Shown here in pieces: positions 1 through 49,957 of a DNA stretch of 64,000 bases (positions are counted from its first letter, which is position 1; each line of letters opens with the position of its first letter). The notes under the pieces were generated by a model. That model saw nothing but the letters and a program-made list of their open reading frames with translations, did no database searches and had not been told where the DNA came from. The stretch comes from Capsulimonadaceae bacterium. GTDB lineage: Bacteria; Armatimonadota; Armatimonadia; Armatimonadales; Capsulimonadaceae. Position numbers and translations under genes: made by a program. Location of the stretch: positions 5,408,001-5,472,000 of the forward strand of contig OZ244065.1 in NCBI GenBank assembly GCA_965215505.1, written 5' to 3'.

Positions 1-2159
1 AGGCTGTTCCGGGACGCCATCTGCTGTGCGTAGTAAGGCGGCATGGCCCAGACATGGTCCGGTGTAAAGAATATCTGCCCCTGGTCCCATCCGTTGTCAT
101 TCTGCCGCCACGGCTGCAAGCAGTTCGCCGGGCAGTCTGCCAAGACGAAGTCCCCATGCCTTCGCACCGCGTTCAGTACGGAAGCATGGCCGAGGGCGCG
201 CTGCATGTCGTGCAGGCTGCCGTTCTCCTCGAAGATGACGGCGTGCATGGCTGTCCCAAGAACCCACTCCTCGAACCTGCGCTGCATCCGTGTCAACTGC
301 TCGTCAACACCCGCCCCGGAGCGCACATCGTCCGCCCCGACATGGAGGTCCCAGCAGGCACATTCGCCGTTGATCGCCTTGAACACCTTTTCCACACTGG
401 GCGAGTCCGGACGCCACCAGGCCGCGCAGACCAGATTGAGGCGGGAGTCCCGCCCGTGCATCGCTCTGGCGAGCTGCATGAACCGGTCGCTGTAGTGAGC
501 GTAAGCCGCCGGGTCGTCTCCTCCGAGGACTTCCTCGTTGCCGATCTCGATATAGCGTACATGGTAAGGACGCGGGTGTCCGCCGTCGGCGCGCTTCTTC
601 CCCCATACGGTTGTGGCGGGGCCATTCACATAATCTACGAGGTCCGCCGCGTCCTGCGGCGTTTCTTCCGCGTTGATGGCGAACGCCGACTCGATGCGGC
701 CCGCCTCGCAGAAGTTCAGGAAGTCCACGATGCCGAAGCCGTTGGTCGAATACGGATACCAATGTCCCGCATAAGGCGGACGCCGGTCTGGTCCGCCGAC
801 CATGTTCTTCCAGCGGTAGCCGGGTGCGTTGACCATCGTGCCGCCGTAGCGCAGGAACGTCACACCTCCCCGGACTAAAGCATCGGCAATATCTGCGCGG
901 ATCGGCAGGCCGTGAAATCGCTCTGCCCCGACCCCCATCAGCACCGCCTGGTCGGCCCAAAGAGTTCCGGGGCGGTCGATCCAGACAGCAAAGCGTGCGC
1001 TCCTATCCGAAGCGTCCGATGTCAAGGTGAACGGATACTTCGCCCAATCACCTGTGATGTGGCGGAAGGCACGCGCCGCATAAGTCCTCTTCCCATCCGC
1101 GCTCTGCAAAGCGACGGTGACGGGGCCTTGCAGACCCCGGGCGCGGAAGTAAATTCGTCCCGCGAAGGTCTGCCCCTGTTTGACGGCGATCCCCCAGCGA
1201 TTCAAGCCCCGGTTGGCGATTCCCGCCCGGCCCGTTCCAGGCCCATGCTGTATGCGTTGGCAGTACGCCCCGTTAAACGGGCGGCTGTCGTCATGCAGGA
1301 AGTTTGCCGCCGCACCCCCCGTCTGGATGGCGTCCCACCGGCCGCTGACGGAATAACCCGGCAGCGCCTGGAACGGACTTTGGATCACGGCCCGCCCGGT
1401 CTGGATGCGTATGTTCTGATAGCCGGCCTCCGCATTCCAGGTACGCAGGGCCATCCTGCCGGTGAGGATGGGAGCGTCCGTGTCAGTGAAGTCAATGGAA
1501 GGGAGGGTGCTGCCCCCCTCAAAGATGCGTACCCTCGGGCCTTCCAGGACGACCCGCAGGTGATGCCATCGGCCCGCCTCGATGCGCGCCGCCACCGACT
1601 CCAGCGGCCGCCAGTCCTGCCGGTGCTTGCCCAGGATGAGCTGCTGGCTGCTCGCGCTCAGGCTGACCTCGTACCCGGTGAAACTGTCCGCGCCGACGGC
1701 GGGGTGCTGGACGCGCACGAGCAGCCCGGCATTCCCTCCTCCCGTCCCTGGCATCTCGATGTCGGCCTCGACGGTCCCGTCCGCAAAGTCCGGCCCGTCC
1801 CACACCAGCTTCCCACCCGGATCGGCGGCGACCCGGCAGGCCCGCCCGTCCGCCCGCCACGCGCCGCCGTATGCCGTCCAGCCCGCGAAATTCGTTGCCG
1901 CCGGTGGCTCCTCAAAACCCTCCCCGAACAGCTTCTGGTCGTACAGGCCGCCATAGATCTCGTGATTGACGTCCTCGATGCATGAACCGTATAGCCAGGG
2001 GGTGACGTGGTTGATGACGTGCCCGGCGTCTACCATGATGTGGGTTTCCTGGCATCGAGCGGGGGCAGGGACAGCAAGCGCGGCAAACGCCAGGGCCGCG
2101 AGGCAAAAAACTTTAACTGCCCACTCCCCTGCCGCCTCCTGACACGCGCTCCCCCTCAT
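1..2159 (-). CDS. GH51 alpha-L-arabinofuranosidase-like protein, secreted (runs off window start)
   Basis: Not in ORF track because there is no stop in the window. Manual minus-strand translation gives a signal peptide, then PWLYGSCIEDVNHEIYGGLY, LRYGG, YIEIGNEE and IFEENG. The ATG overlaps the halogenase TGA (ATGA). Confidence 0.85.
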   Translation of the reverse strand, partial: MRGSACQEAAGEWAVKVFCLAALAFAALAVPAPARCQETHIMVDAGHVINHVTPWLYGSCIEDVNHEIYGGLYDQKLFGEGFEEPPAATNFAGWTAYGGAWRADGRACRVAADPGGKLVWDGPDFADGTVEADIEMPGTGGGNAGLLVRVQHPAVGADSFTGYEVSLSASSQQLILGKHRQDWRPLESVAARIEAGRWHHLRVVLEGPRVRIFEGGSTLPSIDFTDTDAPILTGRMALRTWNAEAGYQNIRIQTGRAVIQSPFQALPGYSVSGRWDAIQTGGAAANFLHDDSRPFNGAYCQRIQHGPGTGRAGIANRGLNRWGIAVKQGQTFAGRIYFRARGLQGPVTVALQSADGKRTYAARAFRHITGDWAKYPFTLTSDASDRSARFAVWIDRPGTLWADQAVLMGVGAERFHGLPIRADIADALVRGGVTFLRYGGTMVNAPGYRWKNMVGGPDRRPPYAGHWYPYSTNGFGIVDFLNFCEAGRIESAFAINAEETPQDAADLVDYVNGPATTVWGKKRADGGHPRPYHVRYIEIGNEEVLGGDDPAAYAHYSDRFMQLARAMHGRDSRLNLVCAAWWRPDSPSVEKVFKAINGECACWDLHVGADDVRSGAGVDEQLTRMQRRFEEWVLGTAMHAVIFEENGSLHDMQRALGHASVLNAVRRHGDFVLADCPANCLQPWRQNDNGWDQGQIFFTPDHVWAMPPYYAQQMASRNS

Positions 2160-3736
2160 GGTTCCGCTCCCTGCTGGAGATCATTCGGCTGCGCCCATGG
2201 GGCGGTCCGCAGAACGGCCCGCATGGCGTCCGGCGTCATGCCCAGCTTATCCGCATTGGTCACCACGTCGCCGAGGTCTACGCCGTACCAGTTACGCTTG
2301 TGCGGGTCGGCCAGCCCGGCGACGTTCAGGCAGGCGATCTCGTCCGCGACCTGGGCACTGAAGCCGGGCCCCGCCGCTCCCCGCCGGACCCGCGCTGCCG
2401 CACACCGCAGGTTAGGCCCAAATTCAGCGTGGCCGGAGGCCAGGAAGCGGGTAACGAGGTGGGGTCGTTCCAACCGCCGGGCCATCTCGCTGTAGCTGGC
2501 CGCCGCGAAGTAGAACTGCGACAGGGCGGCGAAGATGGGGAAACGCGGCATGGCCGCGTAGCAGGCCCCGATGAAGTCCGCCGTCGCGTCCGCCTCTTGC
2601 AGTGTCAGTGCGCCGTACTCCGCAAGCCTCGTCCCTAGCGTCTCCGTGTCCCAAGTTTCCTCGAAAATGCGCCCCAGGCGCTCGACGCCAAGCAGGGTGA
2701 GTGGAATGCCGGTGCTGAACAGCGGGTCCACGAAGGCCGCCGCCGAGGGCAGCAGCGCCCAACCCGACCCGGCGGCGGTGGGCGCGCGGTATGCGATTCG
2801 GGGCGTGTGGGTGAAGGGCCGCATCGGCACGGCCTCGGCGAACTGCGCGCCAACGGACGGGAATCGTGCCAGGAATCGACACCAGGCTGGCTCGCCTTCC
2901 GCTAGGTTTAGCTCTGCCGCCAGCGCACCCGTGACGGCGATGCCCGCACTCGTGACACCCGTGTCAAAGCGCAGTATCCACATCCATCCGCCCTCAAAGA
3001 CATGATGCACGGCGGCATCGTCGGCGGGGTAGGGGGGCGTGTCTGGATGCGAGAACTCCGGCATCGTGTCGCACCGCCGGACGCCGGCGAAGTGGGAGTA
3101 GAGGCTCTGCGTGGCCGGGTATTCGGCGAAGCCGGCTTCGGGCAGGCCGAGCGCCCTGCTCAGAAACCCGCGTGGCCCCGTCGCATCTATGACCAGCCGC
3201 GTCCGCACGGCGAACGCCTCCCCGGCTCGCTCCCCGGCCACCGTCGCCGTGCCGTCGCCGTGCCACACGGGCGCTGTCAGCGTCACCCCGTCCCAATACT
3301 CCGCCCCGACGCCGACCGCCTCACCCACCAGGAACTCATCCACATCGGCCCGCAGCCAGTGCGTGTCCGCCGCCTCATCGTGCGGGCTGGCCGCGACCAT
3401 GAGCTGGTCGCTCCGGTCCGGCGTAGCCCGAAATGCCTGCCCCTGCTCGTGGTGGAAATAAGTAAAACCGCGCTTCAGCCCACAGCCGACATGTGGGTAG
3501 GCGCGCTGCCACGGCCCATACGCGGACAGCGGCAGCAGGCGGGGGAGGTCATAGCGCGTGGCGAGCTGTTCCAGAAGCAGGTTCGCGAGCGGGGAAGTAG
3601 ACTCGCCGATGGCGAAGCGCGGGTGTTTGCCCTTTTCGAGCAGTAGCACGGACAGGCCGATGCGGCGGGCGACCATCGCCAATAGCGAGCCGCCGTAGCC
3701 GGAGCCGATGATCGTCAGGTCATAGTCGGTGTTCAT
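2156..3736 (-). CDS. Flavin-dependent halogenase, PrnC/CtcP-like
   Basis: GSGYGG FAD motif, HPRFAIGES, GLKRGF (catalytic Lys position), GGWMWI (WxWxI), AFVDPLFSTG. Confidence 0.85.
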   Translation of the reverse strand: MNTDYDLTIIGSGYGGSLLAMVARRIGLSVLLLEKGKHPRFAIGESTSPLANLLLEQLATRYDLPRLLPLSAYGPWQRAYPHVGCGLKRGFTYFHHEQGQAFRATPDRSDQLMVAASPHDEAADTHWLRADVDEFLVGEAVGVGAEYWDGVTLTAPVWHGDGTATVAGERAGEAFAVRTRLVIDATGPRGFLSRALGLPEAGFAEYPATQSLYSHFAGVRRCDTMPEFSHPDTPPYPADDAAVHHVFEGGWMWILRFDTGVTSAGIAVTGALAAELNLAEGEPAWCRFLARFPSVGAQFAEAVPMRPFTHTPRIAYRAPTAAGSGWALLPSAAAFVDPLFSTGIPLTLLGVERLGRIFEETWDTETLGTRLAEYGALTLQEADATADFIGACYAAMPRFPIFAALSQFYFAAASYSEMARRLERPHLVTRFLASGHAEFGPNLRCAAARVRRGAAGPGFSAQVADEIACLNVAGLADPHKRNWYGVDLGDVVTNADKLGMTPDAMRAVLRTAPWAQPNDLQQGAEP

Positions 3737-3749
3737 GGCGCGCGCCGTT

Positions 3750-4790
3750 CTAATTAAGCCTTCGTACAGAAGGGCGGGGGCCCTCCCCTACGCCGCCCGT
3801 GTAGGGGCGCGATTCATCGCGCCCTCTTGTCTCATCTTCCGCCTGTTCACACTCCGCGCATACCACCAGCGGTGGCACCTGCTGCGTCCGGTTCATCCCG
3901 GCCAGCCGCGCCGCGCGGGCTGGGGAGCAGGCGCAGGTGTAAAACTTCTCGATGTCCCACAGGTCGGCGAAGACGCAGCCCCGTTTTAGCCCAAGGCCGT
4001 ATTCCTGCACCGCTTCCAGCGAGGGCAGGGTCGGCGGGGAGTAGTCGCCCGAGGCGGCCAGCGCCTCCATCGCGCCGTTCCCGGCCCGTGTCGGGATGAC
4101 GCAGCAGACGGACGCGCCGCCTTCAAAGGCAGCGTCGAGGGAGCGTTTGGCCCAAATGATGCCCTCGGCTTCGGTCAGGAACGGGGGGCGCAGGAGCAGG
4201 AAGACGCGCAGGGCGATGTCATTATCGGCAAGGAAGGCCGCCGCGCGCTCAAAGTCCGCGACGGTGAACCGCTTGTTCAGCCGGGCCAGGACGTCCGGGT
4301 GAACCGTTTCCAGGCCGACGGCGACTTCCAGACGCGCGGCCAGCAGATCACGGAAGCGCAGGCAGTGGTCGCCCAGCAGGGCGGGATGGCACTCGACGAC
4401 CACGCGCTCGAAGCCGCGCACGGCCTCGGCGATCTCGGCGTAGTCTTCGGGCGGGACGGCCTGCGGGTCGAAGAAGCTGCCCGCGTTGTAGAGCTTGACC
4501 TGCCGCGCAGGCGGCAGCCGGTCGAGCGCATAACGGATTTGCGCGGCGATGGCCCCGCTCGGGACGCGGGTGTCCAGCGTGTTCTGCCATAGATCGCACA
4601 TCAGGCACCGGTACGGGCACTCGCGGTTCGTCAGGAAGACCGTCGCCGTCGGGATGGTTCCCCCCAAAGGCCCCGCCTCCTCCTCCCACAAGAAGGCGTA
4701 GGAACGCATCGGGTCGAGCGCGTTCTTCGGGCCGCGCCTCCCAACAATCCAGCGGGTGCGCTCGCTCGGGGAGGCAGGATAGGCGGTCAT
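3750..4790 (-). CDS. Radical SAM protein, RaSEA (TIGR01210)-like
   Basis: CPYRCLMC motif; KLYNAGSFFD, VECHP, EVAVGLET and LLLRPPFLTE match archaeal RaSEA-type blocks. Start MTAYP overlaps the upstream stop. Confidence 0.85.
   Translation of the reverse strand: MTAYPASPSERTRWIVGRRGPKNALDPMRSYAFLWEEEAGPLGGTIPTATVFLTNRECPYRCLMCDLWQNTLDTRVPSGAIAAQIRYALDRLPPARQVKLYNAGSFFDPQAVPPEDYAEIAEAVRGFERVVVECHPALLGDHCLRFRDLLAARLEVAVGLETVHPDVLARLNKRFTVADFERAAAFLADNDIALRVFLLLRPPFLTEAEGIIWAKRSLDAAFEGGASVCCVIPTRAGNGAMEALAASGDYSPPTLPSLEAVQEYGLGLKRGCVFADLWDIEKFYTCACSPARAARLAGMNRTQQVPPLVVCAECEQAEDETRGRDESRPYTGGVGEGPRPSVRRLN
3770..3824. repeat. GTAG-type REP doublet inside the 3' end of the radical SAM ORF
   Basis: GTAGGGGCGCGATTCATCGCGCCC at 3801-3824 and inverted GTAGGGGAGGGCCCCCGCCCTT at about 3770-3791. 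Confidence 0.65.
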
Positions 4791-6199
4791 CGGGCGACGG
4801 GGAACGGGCGCGACAGGTCGTTGCCGGAGAAGCGCTCGCCGGCCGGGTCCCATGCTTCGCGCAGGCGGTCCTGCCACTGGCGCAGGAAGACCGACCGGCA
4901 CCACGCCTTGCTGACGCGCCACTTGCGGTAGGTGTCGCCGCCTGCCCCGTTTACGTCCCCGCCGACGCCGTCCTGGAACCGGCGCTTGGGCGGGGTGGGC
5001 ATTGTGATCCCGGTCACGGCTAAGACGCCTGCACGGACGATGTCGGCCTTCAAAGTGTACAGCCGCTCGACGCTGCCGTCTAATATCTCCTCGAAGGGAA
5101 TAGCGAGCGAGGCGGCCAGGGCCGCCCGGTCGGTGTAGGGGGAGAAAGCATCAAAGCCGAAGTGCTGCCCCGGCGCGTAGGTGCGGACGTAGGAGCGCGA
5201 CAGGCCGCCCGAGTAGGTCAGGCTGTGCTTGATGGCGTCCACGCCCCAGCCCTCCTGGTACAGCAAGGGGTTCCGCAGGACGCTGGACAGGGTCAGATCG
5301 GAGTCCTCCAGCGGGTAGTCCTTCAGGTTTTCGTCGCCGCCGTCGCCGTCGAGCAGGTACTTCATCGCCGGGTAGCGGTCGCGGATGCCGCGCAGGAGGC
5401 ACAGGGCGACGGCGGCGCACTCGACATCTAAGGGATGGTAGTCCTCGATGACTTGGATGGCTTCTTCCATGTCAACTGACTCGGCACTTGCCTTGACGAC
5501 TTCCCACTGGCCCGCCAGCCCCAGTTCACGCACGATGCCTTCGGCCTGGGCGGCGTCCTGGCCGCCGCCGAGGTCCAGGGTGAAGCCGCGGACCATGTCC
5601 GGGTCACGGCCCATCAGCGTCAGGGCGTGGCGGGCCAGCAGGAAGACCGAAGTGCTGTCCACGCCGCCCGAAAAGGCCAGCCCGATCGGCTCGCCCTCGG
5701 GGATCGTGCCGAGCCAGCGCGTCAAGGCTTCCAGGGCCGCCGCGACGTAGGCCGCGCCCAGGGCTTCCACGTCGGCGGGACCCGTGCCGATGGCGGGGTG
5801 GAAGAACCGGTGGTAGCGCGGGGCCGGGTCGGGGCAGCCGATCTGGTCTATCTCGATCAGGTAGTGGGCGGGCACCATGCGCGTGTAGAGCGGGTCGAAC
5901 TGCCACCCGATCTTCTCCGAGCGGCACCACTCGAACAGCGAGTCGATGCGGTCCGAGGCGATCAGGAACGGCCCGTGGAACATCTTGGCGACGAAGTAGC
6001 GCAGGGGGGCGCCGACCGTGCGCGCCATCCGCACCGTCTGCCCGTCGCGGGCCGTGGCCGCGAAATGTCCCTGCGCCCGGCCCAAAGTCTCTACATCGCC
6101 CGCCCGCACCGCCTCAGTCAACTGCGTCGGCGTCAAGGCCGGCATCGCGGACTGCTGTGGGCCGACCAGGTCCACCAAACGCTCCACACCTAATAACAT
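4787..6199 (-). CDS. Asparagine synthetase-like ATP-dependent amide ligase (no N-terminal Cys)
   Basis: AFSGGVDST PP-loop, DGDGGDE, KRRFQDG; degenerate Ntn domain. Confidence 0.85.
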   Translation of the reverse strand: MLLGVERLVDLVGPQQSAMPALTPTQLTEAVRAGDVETLGRAQGHFAATARDGQTVRMARTVGAPLRYFVAKMFHGPFLIASDRIDSLFEWCRSEKIGWQFDPLYTRMVPAHYLIEIDQIGCPDPAPRYHRFFHPAIGTGPADVEALGAAYVAAALEALTRWLGTIPEGEPIGLAFSGGVDSTSVFLLARHALTLMGRDPDMVRGFTLDLGGGQDAAQAEGIVRELGLAGQWEVVKASAESVDMEEAIQVIEDYHPLDVECAAVALCLLRGIRDRYPAMKYLLDGDGGDENLKDYPLEDSDLTLSSVLRNPLLYQEGWGVDAIKHSLTYSGGLSRSYVRTYAPGQHFGFDAFSPYTDRAALAASLAIPFEEILDGSVERLYTLKADIVRAGVLAVTGITMPTPPKRRFQDGVGGDVNGAGGDTYRKWRVSKAWCRSVFLRQWQDRLREAWDPAGERFSGNDLSRPFPVAR

Positions 6200-6282
6200 T
6201 GGAAGGTCTCCATCCTAACGGGACGATAATGATAGGCTTGATTATACCTGCACGGACCGGCTATTTGACCGACGATGCGGGC

Positions 6283-6603
6283 CTAGACGGTCAGCCCGGC
6301 CAGCGGGTTCCCACCAGCGGTGGGCGGGGCAACCGCTGTGACGCTGTCGGAGTCCTGGCTGATGCGCCCAATCGCCGCCACCGTCTTGTTCAGTGACGCG
6401 CCCGCAATGGGCGGGGCCGCGCCCGGCGGCAGCGGCATCTTTTCCGCCGCCACTGTCAGCGCGACCTCCCCCTCGGGTGGCCTGACGGCGGCCAGCGCGG
6501 CGGCGAGTGTGAGCGGCTTGACGGGTGCAGCCTCCTGGGCCGGGGCCGCCAGTGGGAGGAAGGCCAGGACCGGCAGCAAGGGGGCGAAGCGGGCAAGGGC
6601 CAT
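6283..6603 (-). CDS. Short secreted hypothetical protein, possibly a gene fragment
   Basis: Signal peptide MALARFAPLLPVLAFLPLAAPAQE; AGGAGG RBS upstream. Confidence 0.5.
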   Translation of the reverse strand: MALARFAPLLPVLAFLPLAAPAQEAAPVKPLTLAAALAAVRPPEGEVALTVAAEKMPLPPGAAPPIAGASLNKTVAAIGRISQDSDSVTAVAPPTAGGNPLAGLTV

Positions 6604-6613
6604 GGAAGACCTC

Positions 6614-8554
6614 CTAAGAAGCGGGCGGCGCTTGGAACCGGCGCACATGATAGGTGGGCAGGCTGCCGAAGTCGCGGGCCAGGTCGAGCGTGCCGATGTA
6701 CTCGCAGGCGAAGGCGGGCCGCCACTCCCGCCCCGCCTGTCGGGCCTCATGGGCGGCGGCCTGCTGCTCCGCCGTCAGCAGGGCGGCGAACTGCTCCGAG
6801 GCGTAGATGTTGCCCGGAACCGTGACCGGCTCGATGCGGGCCGCCCGGTTGACGTGCGAGCCGTAGTAGTTGAGCGCGCCGGTGATCGGGTCTATCCCCT
6901 CGAAGACCGGCCCGGCGTGCAGGCCGATGCGGATGCTCATCTCGCGCGGCAGGCCGTACTCGGCCCAGTCGGTGTCGCAGACGACCTCCTGGAGCGCCAG
7001 GGCGTATTCGGCCAGCCGGGTGGCGTCGTCCATCAGGACGAAGATGGCGTCCCCCCAGGTGTTGACGAACCCGTCCGTCGGCGGCAGGCTCCCCGCCACG
7101 CGCTCCAGGAAGCTGAACATGAAGGCCGGCATCCGGTCCTCCTGGAGCTGGCTGTAGCCGACCACGTCGGCGAAAAGCAGCGTCTTGACCTGACGGCGGA
7201 TCGCGGCTTCGGTGCGCGGGGCGTGTGGCTGCGGAAGGTGCGGGGCGGGCGTGACGCCGGGCTGAGACGGGGGGCCGAGCGGGATGACGCGGCGGCGGGC
7301 TGGGTCGGGCCAGCCCGCCACCAGGTCGGCCGTCCCGCCTGCCAATGCGCTCTCCCGGCCGTCCCAGACCGCCAGCAGGACGGGGGCGGCCCCCAGCGGC
7401 TGGGCGGCCAGCGTCGCGTACCCGAGCAGCATCCGGCCCATCCAGGCGAAGAGGCTGTCATCGCCCTGCACCGACTCTTCACTGAGGTACTTGACCGAGG
7501 CGGCCCGCCCCAGCGCCGCCTCGAAACGGGCGACCCACTGCGGGCCGGCATAGCGGACGCTGGCGTCGAGGAAATCAGCCGGGGAATAGGGCAGCACGAG
7601 ATGGACCTCGGCACCGCGCGCCTGCATCGCCTCGATGAACAGCAGGTCCGACCCGCAGGCCGCCGAGCAGTAGCCGATCCGGGCGTCCGTCTCCTCCAGG
7701 TGCCGGACGATCTCGGCCCGCACGGCCTCTTCCTGGGACTCGGGGAATCGCGGGACGGCTCGGCCCGGTCGGTCCAGCATGTGGCCGACGAACACCAGTA
7801 CGGCGGGAGGCGTCATCATCTGAAGGAGCGGGTCGGGGACGGGGAACCCGTGGGCGGCCAGGAGTTGGAGCTGCCGGCGGGAGGCGGCGACGGCCCCGTA
7901 GCGCCGCCCCGCCAGCGAGGCGGCGCGCGCGTAAGCCGCCTGCGCTTCCGCCCCCCGGCCGAGCAGCAGGAATGCCTCGCCGCGCGTCGCCCAATGCCAG
8001 TACCGGTCGGCTTCGGAACCGGGAGCGGCCTGCCCGGTGGCCTCCAGCACCGACCCGGCGAGCCGAGCCGCCTGCGCCCGGTCGCCGACGATCCAGGACA
8101 GCGTCGCGGCATTGATGCCGGTCCAGGAGCCGCCCGACGCCTCGAACCCGCGCCCGTAGGCGTCGCGGGCGCATCGGGCGTCCTCCACCCGCCCCGAACG
8201 ACGCCACACGTCCTTGTAGACGCGGGCGATCAGCCCCAGCGTCTCCTCGTCCGCCTCCGCCCCATGGCGCAGGGGCACGCTGTCCCTCCGCATCGGCGCG
8301 GGGTAGAGGTCTTCCAGAACGCCCTGGGCCTCCGCCAGTGCGCCCGCGCGCAGCAGGGCCAGGGCGGTCGCCTGACGCAGCCGCGCGCTGTCCGGGAACC
8401 GGCGCAGCGCCTTCTGCGCCAGGTCGTGCGCCCTAAACGTCTGGCCCTGGTCGAGCATCGTCCGGACCGCCGCCTCGGCCTCCGCCTGGGAAGAAGGAAA
8501 GTCGGGCGGCTGCGGCGAACGGGGATCTAGCGACTGGCTGGGAAGTAAAGGCAT
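6614..8554 (-). CDS. TPR (TRAF-binding/TPR-S-like) + SLOG-like + class III nucleotidyl cyclase
   Basis: TPR: EETLGLIARVYKD, GINAATL, YWHWATRGEA. SLOG-like: FVGHMLD...SAACGSDLLF...VHLVLP. Cyclase: LFADVVGYS, NTWGDA, RIGLHAGPV, GSHVNRAARIE. Confidence 0.9.
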   Translation of the reverse strand: MPLLPSQSLDPRSPQPPDFPSSQAEAEAAVRTMLDQGQTFRAHDLAQKALRRFPDSARLRQATALALLRAGALAEAQGVLEDLYPAPMRRDSVPLRHGAEADEETLGLIARVYKDVWRRSGRVEDARCARDAYGRGFEASGGSWTGINAATLSWIVGDRAQAARLAGSVLEATGQAAPGSEADRYWHWATRGEAFLLLGRGAEAQAAYARAASLAGRRYGAVAASRRQLQLLAAHGFPVPDPLLQMMTPPAVLVFVGHMLDRPGRAVPRFPESQEEAVRAEIVRHLEETDARIGYCSAACGSDLLFIEAMQARGAEVHLVLPYSPADFLDASVRYAGPQWVARFEAALGRAASVKYLSEESVQGDDSLFAWMGRMLLGYATLAAQPLGAAPVLLAVWDGRESALAGGTADLVAGWPDPARRRVIPLGPPSQPGVTPAPHLPQPHAPRTEAAIRRQVKTLLFADVVGYSQLQEDRMPAFMFSFLERVAGSLPPTDGFVNTWGDAIFVLMDDATRLAEYALALQEVVCDTDWAEYGLPREMSIRIGLHAGPVFEGIDPITGALNYYGSHVNRAARIEPVTVPGNIYASEQFAALLTAEQQAAAHEARQAGREWRPAFACEYIGTLDLARDFGSLPTYHVRRFQAPPAS

Positions 8555-8593
8555 TCGGTTCTCCGCGCCCGCGAGAATGAGTACAGCAATAGT

Positions 8594-8932
8594 ATGACTG
8601 CAAGACCGGAAAAACGCAAGGCCGCTTTCTCCAAGGCAGCACAGTATGTGCCGGCCCCGCGCGACACCTCCGCCGTCCACCTCACCGCCGAGATGAGCGC
8701 CCTGACGGAAGACCTGGCGAAGAACACGCACGAAGTCTGGGCGGCCCAGCGCATGGCCGAGGGCTGGCGCTACGGGCCGTGCCGGGATGAGGAGCGCATG
8801 GAACACCCCGGACTCGTCCCCTACGAGGACCTGCCCGACTCGGAGAAGGAGTACGACCGCAGCACCGCCCTGGAGACCCTGCGGCTGATCCTCGCCCTGG
8901 GCTACAGCATCTGCCGCGCCGACCCCCCGTGA
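8594..8932 (+). CDS. Stand-alone RyR (ryanodine receptor repeat) domain protein
   Basis: YVPAPRDTS...LAKNTHEVWAAQRMAEGWRYGPCRD...HPGLVPYEDLPDSEKEYDR...LALGYSI is the RyR domain signature. Confidence 0.9.
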   Translation: MTARPEKRKAAFSKAAQYVPAPRDTSAVHLTAEMSALTEDLAKNTHEVWAAQRMAEGWRYGPCRDEERMEHPGLVPYEDLPDSEKEYDRSTALETLRLILALGYSICRADPP

Positions 8933-8955
8933 TACCCCCAGGATGAACGCCTGGG

Positions 8956-8998
8956 CGTGAAACATGTCACACCCGGTGCGATGTTTCTGCTGTATAAT
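8956..8998 (+). promoter_or_regulatory. CRP/FNR-type box with class II promoter geometry
   Basis: CGTGA-AACATG-TCACA at 8956-8971 (9/10 to TGTGA-N6-TCACA) and TATAAT at 8993-8998. The box centre is -41.5 from the predicted +1 at 9005. Confidence 0.65.
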
Positions 8999-9021
8999 GT
9001 ACCGGAAGAGAAACACATCCC

Positions 9022-9900
9022 ATGAACATCCTCGCCAAGTTCAACCTGATGATGGTGACCGTCTTCACGCTCGGGCTGATCGCCGTGTGCCTAGTGACGA
9101 ACTCGCTGCTCGAAGGCAACGCCCAGCAGCAGGTCGTGGACAACGCGCGCATCATGATGGAGACCGCCCTCGCGATGCGCCAGTACACCAGCAAGCAGAT
9201 CAAGCCGCTGCTCGACGGCCAGAACGTACACGGGTTCCTGCCGCAGACCGTGCCCGCCTATGCGGCCACGCAGGGATTTAATGCATTACGCGAGAAGTAC
9301 CCCCAGTACACCTACAAAGAGGCGACGCTCGACCCAACCAACGTCCTGCAAGACAAGGCGACGGACTGGGAGGCGGACGTCGTCAGCCAGTTCAAAAACC
9401 AGGGGGAGACCAAGGAGATCATCGGCATCCGGCAGAGCGCGACCGGTCCGTCGCTCTACCTGAGCCACCCCATTCGGATCACCGACGCCGCCTGCCTGAC
9501 CTGCCACAGCACGCCGGCCGTCGCCCCCGCCTCCATGATCCAGAAGTACGGGCCGGACCACGGGTTCAACTGGCACCAGGGCGACGTGGTCGGGGCGCAG
9601 ATCGTCTCGGTCCCGATGTCGCTGCCCGAGGCCATGGCCCGGCGAGCCTTTCTGGCCGTACTCGGGTCGCTCGTCGCCGCCTTCGCCGTCACCCTGCTCC
9701 TGCTCAACGTCATGCTGACCCTGCTCGTCATCCGCCCGGTCACACGACTCGCGCGGGTCGCCGACCAGATCAGCCAGGGGAGCCGCGAGGTGGAGGACCT
9801 CCCGGTCCGGGGGCATGACGAGATCGCCGGGCTGGCCGTGTCCTTCAACCGGATGCAGCGCTCACTCAAGAAGGCCATGACGATGCTGGATGAGGTGTAG
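9022..9900 (+). CDS. Membrane sensor with periplasmic heme-c (DUF3365/Tll0287-like) domain and HAMP, no output domain
   Basis: TM helix, QTVPAYAAT/YKEATLDPTN blocks, CLTCH heme motif, second TM, HAMP (IRPVTRL...DEIAGLAVSFNRM), then stop. Confidence 0.9.
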   Translation: MNILAKFNLMMVTVFTLGLIAVCLVTNSLLEGNAQQQVVDNARIMMETALAMRQYTSKQIKPLLDGQNVHGFLPQTVPAYAATQGFNALREKYPQYTYKEATLDPTNVLQDKATDWEADVVSQFKNQGETKEIIGIRQSATGPSLYLSHPIRITDAACLTCHSTPAVAPASMIQKYGPDHGFNWHQGDVVGAQIVSVPMSLPEAMARRAFLAVLGSLVAAFAVTLLLLNVMLTLLVIRPVTRLARVADQISQGSREVEDLPVRGHDEIAGLAVSFNRMQRSLKKAMTMLDEV

Positions 9901-9908
9901 GGGGGAAG

Positions 9909-10832
9909 ATGACGCACCACGACGTTTTCATCAGCTACTCGACGCTCGACAAGCCGATCTCCGATGCCGTCTGCGCGGCCCTGGAAGGTCAAGGCATCCG
10001 GTGCTGGGTGGCCCCGCGCGACATCACGCCCGGCCAGGACTGGAGCGACGCCATCATTGACGCCATCGCGGACTGCCGCGTCTGCCTCCTGATCCTGTCC
10101 ACAGCCTCCAATCAGTCGGACCAGGTCAAGCGGGAGGTGCAGAACGCGGTGAGCGAGGCGAAGCCCATCCTACCGTTCCGCATCGAGGATGTCGCCCTGT
10201 CCAAGCACATGCGCTACTTCATCGGCACGCCGCACTGGCTGGACGCCCTGACGCCGCCGATGGAGCGCCACCTCCAGAGGATGGTGGAGACGGTGTCCGG
10301 ATTGATCGCCGCGCTCGACGACAAGGCGGGCGAGGCCGAACCGCCCCCCGCCCTGCCGCGCGCCTGTTTCCTCTGGGATGATGCGCGCCTCGCCCGCATC
10401 GAGGCCGAATTGCGCCAGTTCGTGGGGCCGCTGGGCCGCACCCTGGTCGCGGAAGCGGCGGTCGCTGCGAACGGCTACGAAGACCTGGGCCGCCGCCTGG
10501 CGGAACACATCCTGTCCGAACGGGAGCGCGCGACCTTCCTTGCCCGGTGTCAGGCCCTGACGCCCGCCGCCCCACCGCCCGCGTCTCGCCCGGCCCCGGA
10601 CGCTGAGGTCATCAGCCCCGAGGCCGTCGCCGCCGCCGAGAAGGCGCTGGCACATTACGTCGGCCCGCTGGCCCGAACGCTGGCGAAACGGGCGGCGCGC
10701 ACGGCGGCGGGGCCGGCCGAGTTCTACCGCCTGCTGGCGGATGAACTCCCCGCGCCCGCCGAGAAGGCCGCGTTTCTGGCTCAGTTCCAGGGCGGCAGGG
10801 GCGGCGGGGCGGCGGGCCGGGCGAACAGGTAG
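9909..10832 (+). CDS. TIR domain protein with two C-terminal helical repeats
   Basis: DVFISYS...CWVAPRDI...SDQVKREV; repeats LRQFVGPLGRTLV...ERATFL and LAHYVGPLARTLA...EKAAFL. Confidence 0.9.
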   Translation: MTHHDVFISYSTLDKPISDAVCAALEGQGIRCWVAPRDITPGQDWSDAIIDAIADCRVCLLILSTASNQSDQVKREVQNAVSEAKPILPFRIEDVALSKHMRYFIGTPHWLDALTPPMERHLQRMVETVSGLIAALDDKAGEAEPPPALPRACFLWDDARLARIEAELRQFVGPLGRTLVAEAAVAANGYEDLGRRLAEHILSERERATFLARCQALTPAAPPPASRPAPDAEVISPEAVAAAEKALAHYVGPLARTLAKRAARTAAGPAEFYRLLADELPAPAEKAAFLAQFQGGRGGGAAGRANR

Positions 10833-12010
10833 CCCTGCACGAAGTCCGCGCCGTTCGCCTTCGCCCATTCCCATTCTTCGCGGCGCTCGATGCCTTCCGC
10901 GACCGTTTTCAGCCCAAGCCCCTGCGCGGTTTCGAGCAGCTTCCGGGCGACCAGCGCCTTGTCCTTCTCACGGTCCACGCAGTCGAGTAGGGCGCGATCT
11001 ATCTTGACATAATCCGGGCGTAGTTCCAACAAAGCAGACAGCGAGGAGTAGCCTGCCCCCACGTCGTCGAGCGCGACACCGAAGCCGTTGTCGCGGTAGT
11101 ACCCCACAATCCTCTGCATCAGTGCCATTTCGGGTAGGTGTTCGCTCTCGATGATCTCGAACACGATGCGCCCACGCTCCAGCCCCAGCTCGTCCACCAT
11201 GCGGACCGTGCTGTTGAGACACGAGTGGGGCGAGTAGATCGCATTGGGCGTGAAATTAATGAATGTCTTAGCGGGGAGCCTGTGCTTCGCCGCCGAAACG
11301 ACGGCCGACCGGCGGGCGGCGAGGTCGAGCTGGAAGAGCAGGCCCGCCCCGTCCGCCAGGTCGAGCATCAGGCCGGGCGAAACCGCACTCCCCTCGACCT
11401 CGGCCCGCATCAGGCACTCATGCCCGTGCAGGATGGAAGGGTCCGTACAGTCCAGGATCGGCTGGAAGACCGAATACAGCCGCCCGCCGCGCAGGATGTC
11501 CAGCAGCCATTCGCTGCGTGCCTTGGCGGCGAAGTCGGGCAGCGAGTCGATCTCAAAGCGGTCGCCCCACTGTGGCAGCAGGCCGTCGGGCTGGAAGTGG
11601 GCGCGCGCGTCGCGCTGCTCGGTGGAAGAGAGCCTGGCTATGATCGGGGCCAGCAGCGGCGCGAGGCTTCCGCCCCCGACGCGGACGCGGATCGTCCCCT
11701 CCTGCTCCTGGTGGTCCCAGCGCGACTGGGTCAGAAACTCCAATATCTTGCCGAGCGAGTAGGTGTGAGGCAGACGTATTTCCAGGGTCCCCGGCCCCCG
11801 CAAGGGCGTGGGCAGCACCTCGCACCTTTGGCAGCCCGGCGCCCCTTCGGGGACGTCTTCCTCATTGGGCAGCGTCATCCCATGATAAACGCCCTCGAGT
11901 GCGTCCGCCTTCAACAGCTCCTCGGCGGGAGTGGTCGGTATGGCCGTCGGCACAGGGCCGTGCGTGTAAATGATCTTGTCCGCGTTCTTCCGATCGGGCA
12001 TCTCGCCCAT
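10781..12010 (-). CDS. EAL-domain c-di-GMP phosphodiesterase
   Basis: FQPI, ECLMR, FINF, FEIIE, ALDDVGAGYSSL, VKID, AEGIE, QGYLF. Confidence 0.9.
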   Translation of the reverse strand: MGEMPDRKNADKIIYTHGPVPTAIPTTPAEELLKADALEGVYHGMTLPNEEDVPEGAPGCQRCEVLPTPLRGPGTLEIRLPHTYSLGKILEFLTQSRWDHQEQEGTIRVRVGGGSLAPLLAPIIARLSSTEQRDARAHFQPDGLLPQWGDRFEIDSLPDFAAKARSEWLLDILRGGRLYSVFQPILDCTDPSILHGHECLMRAEVEGSAVSPGLMLDLADGAGLLFQLDLAARRSAVVSAAKHRLPAKTFINFTPNAIYSPHSCLNSTVRMVDELGLERGRIVFEIIESEHLPEMALMQRIVGYYRDNGFGVALDDVGAGYSSLSALLELRPDYVKIDRALLDCVDREKDKALVARKLLETAQGLGLKTVAEGIERREEWEWAKANGADFVQGYLFARPAAPPPLPPWN

Positions 12011-42190: not shown

Positions 42191-43819
42191 CTACCCTTTG
42201 AGAGCCGCCAGTATCTTCTGCCCGTCCGGCGTCCCCAGGCCCGTGCAGGCGTCCCAGCCGACCGTCGCCGCATAGCCGACGCCGTTCGGGCCGACCTTGT
42301 TGTCGCCCTGTGTGATGTCGTGGAAGGCCCCGGCCGCCTTCACCTTGCTGTAGAGCAGGGTGTTCACGAAGCCGGCCCGCGCGCCCAGGCTCTGGTTGAT
42401 CAGGGCGATCAGGCCCGCCCACAGCGGGGCCACCGCGCTGGTCCCGCCGAAGCCCTGGAGGAACTGGCCGTCCACCTGGATGTCGTAGCCCGTCGCCGGG
42501 TCGGCGTCCCCGGCCACATCCGGGACGCCCCGGCCCGGTTTAAGTCCCGCCCCCGCCGGGGCCGGGAGCGCGACTCCCTGCTGATAGGCGGGGACGGGGA
42601 AGAACTGGCTGATGCCGCCGCCCGTCGCGCCGAAGCCCTGGCTCTGCGGGTCGGCCGAGTGCTGGTTCCAGACGGTTTCCGAGGCGATCACGCCGCCCGA
42701 CGCTGTGAGCGAGGTGCCGCCGCAGGCCAGCGCCCAGGGGCTGGAGGAGGGGAAGTCCACATGCGGCTGGCCGTCCCAGGTGTTCGAGTCCTCGTCGGCG
42801 GCCCCGCTGTCCCCGGCCGCCGTGCAGACCGTGATGCCGAGCATGGCCGCCGACTGGAGCGCGGCGTCGAACTGCTGCATGAACGCCGCCGTGCCGGCCG
42901 ACTCGGGTCCGCCCCAACTAATCGAGATCACCGAGGGGCTGTTCTTGGCGTCGTGGATCGCCGTCGTCAGGGCGTCCAGGAAGTTCTGGTCGCTCCCGTT
43001 CGGGGCGAAGTAGGCCACGACGCTCGCCCCCGGCGCGACCGCGCCGGCGACCTCGATGTCCAGCAGCACCTCCCCGTCGGCGCTGTCGGGCGAGCCGGCC
43101 GGATGGTTCCGGGCGTGATCCACCGAGACGGATGTGACGCGCGGGAGTCTGACGCCCAGCCTCTGGAAGTAGGCCTTCAGGTCGGCGGGCTTGTAGCCGC
43201 CGCCCAGCTCGATGATGCCGATGGTCTGTCCGGTCCCGTCCACCCCCGTGGGGAAGTCGTAGAGTTGGGCTAGGGCAGGCGGCGTGAAGGTCGCTGGCTG
43301 GGCCGCCGCCGGGCGGCGGCGGGAAAGGTGCGACTTGGCGAACGTCCGGTTGTCCAGGCCGAAGACGCCCTCGACGACGCCCTCCAGATCGTCCGGGATG
43401 GAAACCATGCCGGTGCGGCCCCGGTAGGTGCCGTGCGGGTATTCGTAGTCGCTCAGTGTCACCCCGAAGGCCGCCTCGGCGGCCCGGACGGTCCCGGACA
43501 GGACGACCGACCGGCGGCCCGCGCTCTTCTCGACGACGTGGAGGCCGTGCTGGCGGGCGAATGCGGCGACTCGCTCCATGTCCGCCTCGTCCGCCCCGTA
43601 CTGATGCTCGAACTCTCCCGCCGTCATGTACCGGCGCTCCGAGGGCAGTTGGGCCGCCATCGCCGCCATCTCTTCGGGCGAAGGCAGGGGCTGACGGGGC
43701 CGCACCCGGACCGTCACTTCCAGCCGCTCGTTCGGGTCCGCCGGGGCCGTGACGCTGGACTCCGGCAGCGGGTGGCGCTCGCTGCCGGGAAGGCTGACAT
43801 ATCCTGCTTTTGCGCTCAT
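42191..43819 (-). CDS. S53 peptidase (kumamolisin/sedolisin)
   Basis: Prodomain, EVLLDIE, AAGDSG, GGTSAVAP, WDACTGLG. Confidence 0.95.
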   Translation of the reverse strand: MSAKAGYVSLPGSERHPLPESSVTAPADPNERLEVTVRVRPRQPLPSPEEMAAMAAQLPSERRYMTAGEFEHQYGADEADMERVAAFARQHGLHVVEKSAGRRSVVLSGTVRAAEAAFGVTLSDYEYPHGTYRGRTGMVSIPDDLEGVVEGVFGLDNRTFAKSHLSRRRPAAAQPATFTPPALAQLYDFPTGVDGTGQTIGIIELGGGYKPADLKAYFQRLGVRLPRVTSVSVDHARNHPAGSPDSADGEVLLDIEVAGAVAPGASVVAYFAPNGSDQNFLDALTTAIHDAKNSPSVISISWGGPESAGTAAFMQQFDAALQSAAMLGITVCTAAGDSGAADEDSNTWDGQPHVDFPSSSPWALACGGTSLTASGGVIASETVWNQHSADPQSQGFGATGGGISQFFPVPAYQQGVALPAPAGAGLKPGRGVPDVAGDADPATGYDIQVDGQFLQGFGGTSAVAPLWAGLIALINQSLGARAGFVNTLLYSKVKAAGAFHDITQGDNKVGPNGVGYAATVGWDACTGLGTPDGQKILAALKG

Positions 43820-43973
43820 CGTACTCTCCTGTGTCGCTCCGCCGCCGTGCCGCCCGGCGGGAAAGCCTGTGGCATGGCGCACACACGCTGGTGCCGTTAT
43901 GATGACACATCTACGGTAAGGAGTCAACCGCGATTCGGCAGGATTCTCGGCGCGGGCCGTCGTACAAAAGGGC

Positions 43974-44660
43974 ATGACACCCGAGTTCTCGCCGGCCGGT
44001 GATCTGGCCGTCCGCGCTGCCTTCGGGGCGGAGATCAGCCCCCACACCAACGCCCTCATCAGTCGCTTCTGCCGGCACCTCCAGGCGGAGCCGATCCGGG
44101 GCGTGACCGAGTGGGTGCCGGGCTACGCAACCGTGACCGTCTACTACCGGCCCTGGGACATCGGCTATGACGCGCTCTGCGAGGAGCTGACCCGGCGCAC
44201 CGGCGGAGTGGGGGCGGCGCAGACGCCCGAAGCGCGGCGGGTCGAAATCCTCGTCTGCTACGGCGGTGAACACGGGCCTGACTTGGACGAAGTCGCCGCC
44301 GCGCACGGTCTGACTCCTGCCCAGGTGATCGAGCGGCACGCGGGCGGGGAGTATCTGGTCTACTTCCTCGGCTTCCTGCCCGGCTTCCCTTACCTGGGCG
44401 GGCTGGACCCCGCGATCGCGACGCCCCGGCGGGCGACGCCGCGCCCTTCCGTCCCCGCCGGGGCGGTCGGCATCGCCGGGGCGCAGACCGGCGTCTACCC
44501 GCTGGAGACGCCCGGTGGCTGGCAGATCATCGGGCGGACGCCGCTGCGCCTGTACGACCCGGCCCGGCAGCCGCCCGCACTGCTGGCGGCGGGCGATTAT
44601 GTCCGGTTTGTCCCGATCCCAGAGCGGCAGTTTGAGGAGATGGCTGATGGATCGTATTGA
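43974..44660 (+). CDS. pxpB: 5-oxoprolinase subunit B
   Basis: GFLPGFPYL, GVYPLETPGGWQIIGRT. Confidence 0.95.
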   Translation: MTPEFSPAGDLAVRAAFGAEISPHTNALISRFCRHLQAEPIRGVTEWVPGYATVTVYYRPWDIGYDALCEELTRRTGGVGAAQTPEARRVEILVCYGGEHGPDLDEVAAAHGLTPAQVIERHAGGEYLVYFLGFLPGFPYLGGLDPAIATPRRATPRPSVPAGAVGIAGAQTGVYPLETPGGWQIIGRTPLRLYDPARQPPALLAAGDYVRFVPIPERQFEEMADGSY

Positions 44661-45411
44661 CCTGAACGCCGACATGGGCGAGAGCTTCGGTGCCTACACC
44701 CTGGGCGACGATGACGCCCTGCTCCAATCCGTCACGTCGGCGAACATCGCCTGCGGCTTCCACGCGGGCGACCCCAGCACGATGGCCCGCGCCGTCGCCT
44801 CATGCGCGGCGCGCGGCGTCGCCCTGGGCGCGCACCCCGGCCTGCCGGACCTGGCCGGGTTCGGCAGGCGCGCGCTGGCCGTCACGCCCGCCGAGGTCCG
44901 CGATTTGGTCACCTACCAGGTCGGGGCCTTGGCCGCCTTCGCCGCCCGGCACGGGCAGCGTCTCCAGCACGTCAAGCCGCACGGCGCGCTCTACAACATG
45001 GCCGAGCGCGACCCCGCCATCGCGGCGGCCATCGCCCAGGCCACATCCGAGGCAGATGCGGCCTTGATTCTGATGGGCCTGTCAGGCGGGCGGCTCGTCG
45101 CGGCGGGGCGTGAATTGGGCCTGCGCGTTACCCAGGAAGTGTTCGCCGACCGCTCCTACGCGCCCGATGGGACGCTGACGCCGCGTGGCCTGCCCGGCGC
45201 GGTCCTGCACGACTCCGCACAGGTCGCGGCCCGCATCGTCCGGCTCGTGACGGAGGGGAAGATCGCGGCGTCGGATGGCTCCGAGCTAGTGCCCATTGCA
45301 GACACGATCTGCCTGCACGGCGACTCGCCCGCCGCGGCCGGGCTTGCCGCCGCCGTCCGCAAGGCGCTCGAAGCCGTCGGCGTCGCCGTCCGGCCCTTGG
45401 GGCTGCCATGA
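44647..45411 (+). CDS. pxpA: 5-oxoprolinase subunit A (LamB/YcsF)
   Basis: DLNADMGESFG, ANIACGFHAGD, HVKPHGALYN, ICLHGD. Confidence 0.95.
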   Translation: MDRIDLNADMGESFGAYTLGDDDALLQSVTSANIACGFHAGDPSTMARAVASCAARGVALGAHPGLPDLAGFGRRALAVTPAEVRDLVTYQVGALAAFAARHGQRLQHVKPHGALYNMAERDPAIAAAIAQATSEADAALILMGLSGGRLVAAGRELGLRVTQEVFADRSYAPDGTLTPRGLPGAVLHDSAQVAARIVRLVTEGKIAASDGSELVPIADTICLHGDSPAAAGLAAAVRKALEAVGVAVRPLGLP

Positions 45412-46358
45412 CCCCAACGCCCATCCTGCGCGTCGAGTCGCCCGGCCTCCTGACCACGGTGCAGGATGAGGGCCGGTGGGGGCACCAGCGGGACGGCATG
45501 GTCGTAGCCGGCGCGATGGACCCGTTCGCGTCGGCTGTGGCGAATCTCCTGGTCGGCAACCCGCGCGGGGCGGCCGTCCTGGAGATCACGCTGCTCGGCC
45601 CGACCCTGCTGGCCCTCGCCGACCTCCGCCTGGCCCTGTGCGGCGGCGACCTGTCGCCGGCCGTGGACGGTCAGCCCGCACCCCTTTGGAAAACATTCAC
45701 ACTGCGCGAGGGGCAAACGCTCACCTTTGGCCGCCGCCGTGCGGGCGCGCGTGCCTACCTCGCCGTCATGGGCGGCTTCGCCGTTCCCGCCATACTCGGC
45801 AGCCGCGCGACCTTCCTGCGCGCCCAGATCGGCGGTTTCGAGGGGCGGCCCTTGCGGAAGGGCGACGTGCTGGAAGCCTGGCTTCATCCCCTCCCCCCCG
45901 GCGAGCGCGGCCTGCGCCCCGCCGACATCCCAGACTATGCCCAACCCGCTGTCCTGCACGTCCTGCCTGGCCCGCACTTCTCCGCCTTCGCCGACGCGGG
46001 CCGCAGCACCTTCTTTTCGTCCCCTTACACCGTCTCGCCGCAGTCCGACCGGCAGGGCTACCGGCTCACCGGCCCCGCCGTGGCACGCGCCGATGCCGCC
46101 GGCCTCCTCTCCGAAGCGATGCCCTGGGGGGGAGTCCAGGTCCCCCCGGACGGCCTGCCGATCCTGCTGATGGCCGACCGCCAGACGACCGGCGGCTACC
46201 CACTCGTCGGCGTCGTCATCTCCGCCGACCTGCCCCGCGCCGGCCAGCTCGCGCCGGGCGACTCGGTCCGCTTCGAGGCCGTGACACTGGCCGAGGCGCA
46301 TGAGTTGGCCTTGCGCCAGGAGCGGTGGCTCCGGGTGGTGGAGCAGGCGCGGCCCTAG
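45408..46358 (+). CDS. pxpC: 5-oxoprolinase subunit C
   Basis: TTVQDEGR, SDRQGYRL, DRQTTGGYP. Confidence 0.95.
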   Translation: MTPTPILRVESPGLLTTVQDEGRWGHQRDGMVVAGAMDPFASAVANLLVGNPRGAAVLEITLLGPTLLALADLRLALCGGDLSPAVDGQPAPLWKTFTLREGQTLTFGRRRAGARAYLAVMGGFAVPAILGSRATFLRAQIGGFEGRPLRKGDVLEAWLHPLPPGERGLRPADIPDYAQPAVLHVLPGPHFSAFADAGRSTFFSSPYTVSPQSDRQGYRLTGPAVARADAAGLLSEAMPWGGVQVPPDGLPILLMADRQTTGGYPLVGVVISADLPRAGQLAPGDSVRFEAVTLAEAHELALRQERWLRVVEQARP

Positions 46359-49952: not shown

Positions 49953-49957
49953 AATCC

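Follow-up and report, generated by a model that had tools for sequence, protein, structure and literature searches.

A ligase, radical SAM enzyme and halogenase gene set of a Capsulimonadaceae bacterium, conserved in several phyla and linked to homologs of the enediyne proteins UnbU and UnbV

We analyzed a 64,000-nucleotide stretch of the genome of a Capsulimonadaceae bacterium (assembly GCA_965215505.1, contig OZ244065.1, positions 5,408,001 to 5,472,000 of the forward strand), hereafter the window, and in particular three co-oriented genes on its minus strand. These encode AsnL (4787–6199, 470 residues), a Cys-less, two-domain PP-loop ligase of the AsnB/beta-lactam synthetase fold; a radical S-adenosylmethionine (SAM) enzyme resembling the archaeal enzyme RaSEA (3750–4790, 346 residues counted from ATG, the longest open reading frame (ORF) beginning at GTG 4922); and a flavin-dependent halogenase of the PltM/CtcP type (2156–3736, 526 residues). 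We tentatively propose, with a confidence somewhat short of even, that this trio is the enzymatic core of a conserved accessory system of many phyla, the small-molecule product of which is linked to an envelope module of the UnbU/UnbV type, these being two protein families of the enediyne cassette. The proposal is built on enzyme families, motifs, conservation, linkage and co-occurrence, all of which we observed.

Organization and conservation of the trio

The AsnL stop and the ATG of the radical SAM gene share 4 nt (4787–4790), and from this ATGA start/stop overlap the two genes appear to be translationally coupled; a spacing of 13 nt (3737–3749) separates the radical SAM gene from that of the halogenase. 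The ORF coordinates agree with the initial annotation of the window, which had described the trio as co-oriented with this overlap and gap. It had also pointed to a TATAAT upstream of the genes, and a −10-like hexamer of this sequence is indeed present on the coding strand (6246–6241, minus), 41 nt upstream of the AsnL start; because a consensus scan of positions 1–7000 found 0 complete sigma-70 promoters (shuffled sequences gave a mean of 0.5), it is by itself weak evidence for a promoter.

The radical SAM family comprised 381 clusters (at 50% identity) with E-values of 1e-30 or less in a representative library, and when a single genome for each species was scanned, at least 579 genomes had a relative. 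Locus counts given below refer to the best 80 loci of that scan, with neighbors counted within 8 kb; several of the incomplete loci among them are cut by contig ends. These 80 loci span Armatimonadota, Acidobacteriota, Planctomycetota, Verrucomicrobiota, Bacteroidota, Methylomirabilota and other phyla, and 58 of them have the order AsnL, radical SAM enzyme, halogenase, the remainder having AsnL and the radical SAM enzyme only (12), the radical SAM enzyme and the halogenase only (8) or the radical SAM enzyme alone (2). AsnL adjoins the radical SAM gene in 70 of the 80. Cultured carriers include Singulisphaera sp. PoT (L053), Acidobacteriaceae bacterium KBS 96 (L061) and Acidobacterium sp. S8 (L040).

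When the 61 nearest genomes were compared, the radical SAM gene was present in 24, AsnL in 22, all of them inside those 24, and the halogenase in 24, of which 23 were shared. The conservation of the trio, on which the initial annotation had made its three-gene pathway depend, was thus borne out both by gene order in the 80 loci and by near-identical genome sets among the 61 relatives. As only 7 of the 23 genomes of the window's own genus carry the genes, we regard the trio as accessory. Members of the sister family carry its genes on different contigs (e.g., in G038), and yet these co-occur; such unlinked co-occurrence is a stronger sign of shared function than adjacency alone. A separate observation from that family is a GDSL lipase/acylhydrolase gene lying between AsnL and the radical SAM gene in three loci of genus g15 (L024, L026 and L027), with the halogenase elsewhere in the genome.

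Linkage to envelope proteins

All ORFs of the 80 loci were clustered and the representatives were scanned against Pfam. The neighbors identified in this way included beta-propeller proteins with FG-GAP and UnbV_ASPIC domains, near the trio in 43 of the 80 loci; a TPR/FG-GAP/UnbV protein of ~1170 residues that recurs beside the trio; a ~290-residue membrane protein with a weak match to RnfD/NqrB, which we call UnbU-like, in 28 loci; and genes for NMT1/SsuA-type ATP-binding cassette (ABC) importers in 12–17. The fullest arrangement was a single co-oriented string in L033–L035, running from a propeller, the membrane protein, an ABC permease, an ATPase and a binding protein to AsnL, the radical SAM enzyme and the halogenase.

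The association also held at the level of whole genomes. An UnbU-like protein was found in 25 of the 61 relatives, and 22 of these also had the radical SAM gene (present in 24). As to the large TPR-propeller, its C-terminal domain occurred in 27 relatives, which took in 23 of those 24. In Terriglobia, an evenly drawn sample of 151 genomes contained the radical SAM gene in six and a strong UnbU-like match (E-values of 1e-94 or less) in seven, which included all six.

In the genome from which the window derives, the parts lie at three places: the trio; a second site in the window; and an operon ~680 kb away that holds two propellers, a prepilin-like gene and the UnbU-like membrane protein. The gene at the second site (46479–51059, minus strand) encodes a TPR/FG-GAP/UnbV_ASPIC protein of 1526 residues by Pfam, and a BLASTP comparison with the neighbor of the trio in an Acidobacteria locus (L051:3020-6538) gave an E-value of 5e-76 and a colinear match over ~1170 residues, by which it is to be regarded as the counterpart of the ~1170-residue protein found beside the trio in other phyla. 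The propellers begin with a membrane anchor or a signal of the Sec or lipoprotein type, not of the Tat type. The trio proteins lack signal peptides and are therefore predicted to be cytoplasmic. Linkage and co-occurrence together place the trio in a larger system with UnbV- and UnbU-like envelope proteins, in place of the self-contained three-gene operon of the initial annotation. The envelope part comprises two or three FG-GAP/UnbV propellers, the polytopic UnbU-like membrane protein and the large TPR-propeller.

Some further features of these regions were recorded. The prepilin-like gene of the distant operon (L117:10797-11660), with DUF1559 and N-terminal-methylation matches, separates the UnbU-like gene from the UnbV-like propellers, and a GH2-like protein of 1732 residues is encoded next. 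The same genome encodes nine UnbV_ASPIC proteins (L124–L132); as only some of these adjoin the UnbU-like gene, the family has further roles or paralogs. Beside the large TPR-propeller gene of the window there are LamB/YcsF and carboxyltransferase (CT_A_B) genes, a pair of the 5-oxoprolinase type (44515–46358), as well as a kumamolisin-type peptidase (42191–44059) and a GH2 beta-galactosidase-like gene (51063–53870). In a Bacteroidota locus (L098:6498-8579) the radical SAM gene is succeeded by that of a multihaem cytochrome c-like protein, and then by genes for another protein of the FG-GAP/UnbV type and for one with TPRs.

Homology to the enediyne proteins UnbU and UnbV

When the membrane protein was looked up in an atlas, one cluster listed bore the automatically assigned name "enediyne biosynthesis protein UnbU" (score 0.92), a lead that was then tested by BLAST. 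A tblastn search against plasmids returned 30 records, 28 of them from Streptomyces, and many of the matched genes bear the annotation enediyne UnbU and adjoin genes for CRTAC1/VCBS proteins. The plasmid of the C-1027 producer (S. globisporus) has the annotated order DUF1702, DUF1702, CRTAC1 family protein, RnfD-type protein, polyketide synthase (PKS). Against the proteins of this cluster, the membrane protein of the window's own genome matched SgcE5 (RnfD-type, UnbU) with an E-value of 9e-19 (28% identity over 280 residues) and one of its propellers matched SgcE4 (CRTAC1, UnbV) with an E-value of 4e-42 (26% identity over 540 residues).

We identified no enediyne PKS in this genome; the SgcE query gave only three matches resembling fatty acid synthases, the best with an E-value of 8e-28 over 272 residues. 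PF08012 (DUF1702, E3/UnbL) likewise had no match in the genome, a result to be read beside the control genomes, which were equally silent. By homology, then, the system would share two of the five families of the cassette (PKSE, thioesterase, E3/UnbL, E4/UnbV and E5/UnbU) and lack the defining one, PKSE.

The ligase

The initial annotation had assigned the three proteins to a Cys-less AsnB-like ligase, a RaSEA-like radical SAM enzyme and a PrnC-like halogenase, and the three enzyme identities hold by Pfam and NCBIfam scans, motifs and fold, the relatives compared for the halogenase being PltM and CtcP, not PrnC. Of the models it had suggested for a check, the Pfam families Asn_synthase and Trp_halogenase were matched, and TIGR01210 (RaSEA) scored below its cut-off, as detailed below.

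For AsnL, the Pfam Asn_synthase match (47.7 bits) covers only residues 170–304, around the PP-loop, which reads FSGGVDS (residues 176–182) and in which S177, G179, D181 and S182 are invariant among 30 aligned family members. The N-terminus reads MLLGVERL, and a Cys after Met1 was found in 0 of the 30, so that the retention of the SGGxDS motif and the loss of the N-terminal Cys stand as first described. The mean column identity of this alignment, which spans several phyla, was 63%. AsnL scored 40.5 bits against the AsnB model TIGR01536 (cut-off 267) and 15 bits against the lasso/macrolactam cyclase model NF033561 (cut-off 300), and a sequence search of PDB chains returned 0 matches with E-values of 0.01 or less. 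Its AlphaFold model (mean predicted local distance difference test score, pLDDT, 83) had as its top Foldseek matches 1mc1, 1jgt, 1ct9 and 1q15, with template modeling (TM) scores of 0.53–0.59 over 450–490 columns, and superposes on beta-lactam synthetase, AsnB, human ASNS and the carbapenam synthetase CarA over ~480 columns. Because the superposition extends this far, the N-terminal 170 residues are taken to be a glutaminase-like domain, and on the predicted model AsnL would have the two-domain AsnB fold with an inactive N-terminal domain.

The radical SAM enzyme

Among curated families the radical SAM enzyme matched TIGR01210 alone, with 104.1 bits (E-value 8.5e-30, model positions 2–238 of 313); it did not reach the curated cut-off of 212.15 bits, which 3 of 14 exceeded in the control genomes. 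The CPxxCxxC motif (C58, C62 and C65) was invariant in all 27 sequences examined. A search with the predicted model (pLDDT 92) yielded generic radical SAM enzymes only (PFL-AE, Elp3, LipA and HydE), and PDB chains gave 0 sequence matches with E-values of 0.01 or less. The gene adjoining it encodes an Asn_synthase-fold protein, not ArcS, the search for ArcS having been confined to this neighborhood. The earlier description of the enzyme as RaSEA-like therefore needs qualifying: it is a relative of the RaSEA family, and its score (104 versus 212 bits) and its AsnB-fold partner, in place of ArcS, indicate a sister family and not an ortholog. A prediction of a complex between AsnL and the radical SAM enzyme, run without controls, scored 0.00, a value that speaks neither for nor against such a complex. 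Toward the C-terminus of the radical SAM enzyme (residues ~286–314) there is a conserved Cys pattern, CxC...CxxC, with C288 and C311 nearly invariant and R292 conserved; a second metal or cluster may be bound here.

The halogenase

The halogenase matched Pfam Trp_halogenase with 51 bits (gathering cut-off 21), and its best relatives of solved structure were PltM and the tetracycline 7-halogenase CtcP (E-values of ~1e-46, residues 4–359). The GxGxxG motif (G11, G13 and G16), K88, W251 and W253 were invariant in 30 of 30 homologs from several phyla, in keeping with the Lys and WxWxI motifs noted in the initial annotation; the last Pro of WxWxI(P) is replaced by Arg here (GWMWILRF). K88 aligns with the catalytic Lys87 of PltM, in the PltM context CGIKLGF, as described in excerpts of PMC6424973, which also give chloride, bromide and iodide as halides used by PltM and state that in PltM the C-terminal third shapes the substrate pocket (PMC6424973). 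That third of our protein (residues ~360–526) does not align with PltM. NCBIfam scans gave weak matches of the flavoprotein to QhpG (1.2e-12), GoxB and LodB. In one relative (L029, G026:C1:1710510-1712083) the halogenase beside the trio matches in two pieces, one with two TAG codons inside, and the gene may be broken there.

Genes surrounding the trio

The trio is followed by a fourth co-oriented gene, unremarked in the initial annotation, which encodes a secreted protein resembling 3-keto-disaccharide hydrolases and arabinofuranosidases (3–2159, minus strand); it shares 4 nt with the halogenase stop and runs off the edge of the window. No homolog of it stood beside the trio in the three loci of relatives in which the downstream flank was long enough (L028–L030), so it was ruled out as a member of the system and is treated as a probable lineage-specific passenger. 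On the other side, upstream of AsnL, lies a small secreted ORF (6283–6603). It had 0 tblastn matches in 109 other loci and was for this reason rejected as a precursor peptide. Beyond it is a group of signaling genes (6614–12010), comprising a TPR-S adenylate/guanylate cyclase (6614–9016, minus strand), a Tll0287-like/HAMP protein (9022–9900, plus strand), a TIR-domain protein (9909–10832, plus strand) and an EAL phosphodiesterase (10781–12010, minus strand). In the two parts of the window that were annotated, 1–14 kb and 42–54 kb, we saw no nonribosomal peptide synthetase, PKS or carrier protein, which agrees with the initial annotation that none is nearby.

Proposed function and alternative explanations

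All the chemical steps that we propose are inferred, as are their order and whether material would move from cytoplasm to envelope or the other way. AsnL would adenylate a carboxylate by means of its PP-loop and join it to a pre-formed amine in an amide-type C–N bond, as beta-lactam synthetase and CarA do; the amine would have to be pre-formed because a protein that lacks the glutaminase nucleophile would draw no ammonia from glutamine. The radical SAM enzyme would then act on the AsnL adduct and, if it resembles RaSEA, radical C–N cleavage would leave only the nitrogen behind; archaeal RaSEA, as described in excerpts of PMC11298593, produces the amidine from the lysine adduct that its partner in the complex makes. 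Where it is present, the PltM-like enzyme would halogenate an electron-rich ring as a tailoring step, and the small-molecule product or its precursor would pass to the UnbU/UnbV-type envelope module or come from it.

Several points weigh against this proposal. The substrate, product and activity of all the parts are not known, and the route by which a cytoplasmic product would reach propellers with Sec or lipoprotein-type signals is unexplained. The RaSEA analogy for C–N cleavage may not transfer given the score of 104 versus 212 bits, and the fold search offered no specific structural relative of the radical SAM enzyme in its place. Relatives are not independent samples, so that co-occurrence counts overstate their statistical weight; 37 of the 80 loci have no FG-GAP neighbor within 8 kb, and three genomes (G040, G041 and G049) have the envelope proteins without the ligase/radical SAM pair. 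Composition varies as well. Five Bacteroidota genomes, all metagenome-assembled and of unestablished completeness, carry an operon of a binding protein, a TPR-propeller, a propeller, AsnL and the radical SAM enzyme, and in these the family profile (E-values of 1e-10 or less) found the halogenase in 0 of 5 and the UnbU-like protein was present in 1 of 5. The halogenase, an obligatory third enzyme in the pathway first proposed, is consequently not one, and from the Bacteroidota pattern we take the ligase/radical SAM pair and UnbV-type propellers to be the core, with halogenation a tailoring step.

Among the alternatives, the trio might instead modify a ribosomal peptide or an envelope protein before export, with AsnL closing a lactam or isopeptide in the manner of lasso cyclases, the radical SAM enzyme installing a crosslink, and the flavoprotein hydroxylating or halogenating Trp or Tyr in the way that QhpG, LodB and GoxB act for protein-derived quinone cofactors. 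We consider this unlikely. The trio does co-occur strictly with secreted proteins, and the weak matches to QhpG, GoxB and LodB and to the macrolactam cyclase family point the same way; however, the last of these reaches only 15 of the 300 bits of its cut-off, the propeller signals are not of the Tat type, and no conserved short ORF stands beside the trio in the 80 loci, where recurrent short-ORF clusters proved to be antisense shadows of the neighboring propeller gene. The ORF immediately upstream in the window has no counterpart in the other loci, and the halogenase keeps its Lys and WxW residues in 30 of 30 homologs, its best relatives acting on free phenolics. A different role for the secreted proteins would be uptake, in which they and a binding-protein-dependent transporter capture an external compound that the enzymes convert in salvage or catabolism. 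This would suit the NMT1/SsuA-type importer genes, which in L033–L035 separate the trio from the envelope genes, the LivJ-type binding protein that heads the Bacteroidota operon, and the channel-like fold of NqrB/RnfD-type proteins. Transporters occur, however, in a minority of loci and belong to differing families, the combination of an ATP-dependent ligase with a halogenase and a radical SAM enzyme is typical of biosynthesis and not of breakdown, and among the ORF clusters of the 80 loci no hydrolase or dehydrogenase recurs with the trio, which makes uptake rather improbable in our view.

The match to RaSEA also raises the question of RNA or nucleoside modification by a bacterial analog of ArcS–RaSEA, in which the PP-loop enzyme would adenylate a base and attach an amino acid, the radical SAM enzyme would trim it and halogenation would be added. 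The radical SAM enzyme matches no curated family but RaSEA, its Foldseek matches include Elp3 and MiaB, and many PP-loop ATPases act on tRNA. Against these stand a ligase fold of the AsnB/beta-lactam synthetase type, not that of TilS, TtcA or QueC, with no RNA-binding domain detected; a patchy presence within a single genus (7 of 23 genomes); and a tight link to envelope proteins that is ill-suited to a tRNA enzyme. Moreover, we know of no halogenated nucleosides in RNA. We therefore hold this explanation to be very improbable, and continue to favor, at the tentative level stated above, a small-molecule system tied to the envelope module.

Comparison with known systems

Pfam and NCBIfam scans returned no curated family specific to any of the trio proteins. 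The full-text literature that we searched, in which most subscription papers are not covered, described neither the trio nor UnbU/UnbV homologs outside enediyne clusters, and "TIGR01210" was unmentioned in it. What is new here is the membrane protein, the E4/E5 homology, the co-occurrence across whole genomes of two phyla, the scattering of the parts in the genome that holds the window, and a Bacteroidota form without the halogenase.

The trio resembles ArcS–RaSEA in that an enzyme attaching an amine-bearing group is paired with a TIGR01210-type radical SAM enzyme. In archaea the two proteins form a complex, according to excerpts of PMC11298593, and here the ligase and radical SAM genes appear translationally coupled. 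It differs in that the partner is an ATP-dependent AsnB-fold ligase in place of the TGT-related ArcS, the hosts are bacterial, the link is to envelope proteins and not to tRNA, and the TIGR01210 score falls short. With the beta-lactam and carbapenam synthetases AsnL would share, judging by its model, the two-domain fold, a dead glutaminase-like N-terminal domain and an intact PP-loop, but its identity to them is 15–18% and its genomic context is another. The halogenase has in common with PltM and CtcP the flavin adenine dinucleotide (FAD) fold over residues 4–359, the catalytic Lys and the WxW residues, and departs from them in the C-terminal residues (~360–526), which fail to align. Since the partner of the radical SAM enzyme is not homologous to ArcS, the system is not an ArcS–RaSEA variant, nor, as it has no PKS, one of the enediyne cassette; we accordingly class it as a new kind of system of unknown function. 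It is of interest as a strongly conserved enzyme set without a known product, spread over many bacterial phyla. The tie between a RaSEA-type radical SAM enzyme and an ATP-dependent ligase in bacteria also hints at a general glutamine-free delivery of nitrogen, in which an amine carrier would be attached and then cut by radical chemistry.

The closest parallel on the envelope side is the enediyne cassette. The propeller and the membrane protein are full-length homologs of SgcE4 and SgcE5, and the E4/E5 homologs are neighbors in both systems, with one prepilin-like gene intervening in the window's own genome; by contrast, the PKSE of the cassette is absent here, and none of the three trio enzymes belongs to the cassette by the annotation of the C-1027 record. 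In excerpts of two sources the roles of E3–E5 are still unproven (PMC10760148; PMC8341276), and a review says of the proposed activity of a cassette protein that it "must still be proved" (PMC8341276). The function of E4 and E5, open since the cassette was defined, can now be approached through their homologs in a setting free of PKS. The cassette reportedly gives iodinated polyene and polyyne intermediates such as a diiodotetrayne, and to our knowledge it has no recognized halogenase. One may speculate, at a low probability, that the UnbU/UnbV pair is a general envelope machine and not peculiar to enediynes, which in soil and water bacteria of at least five phyla would operate with the ligase/radical SAM set, with or without the halogenase, in place of a PKS. 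The iodinated intermediates would suggest further that at the membrane this pair deals with halide, or carries out oxidation or halogenation, with the PltM-like halogenase as its cytoplasmic partner. If this were true, the simpler, PKS-free system of the Capsulimonadaceae bacterium and its relatives would reveal what E4 and E5 do in the enediyne cassette itself.

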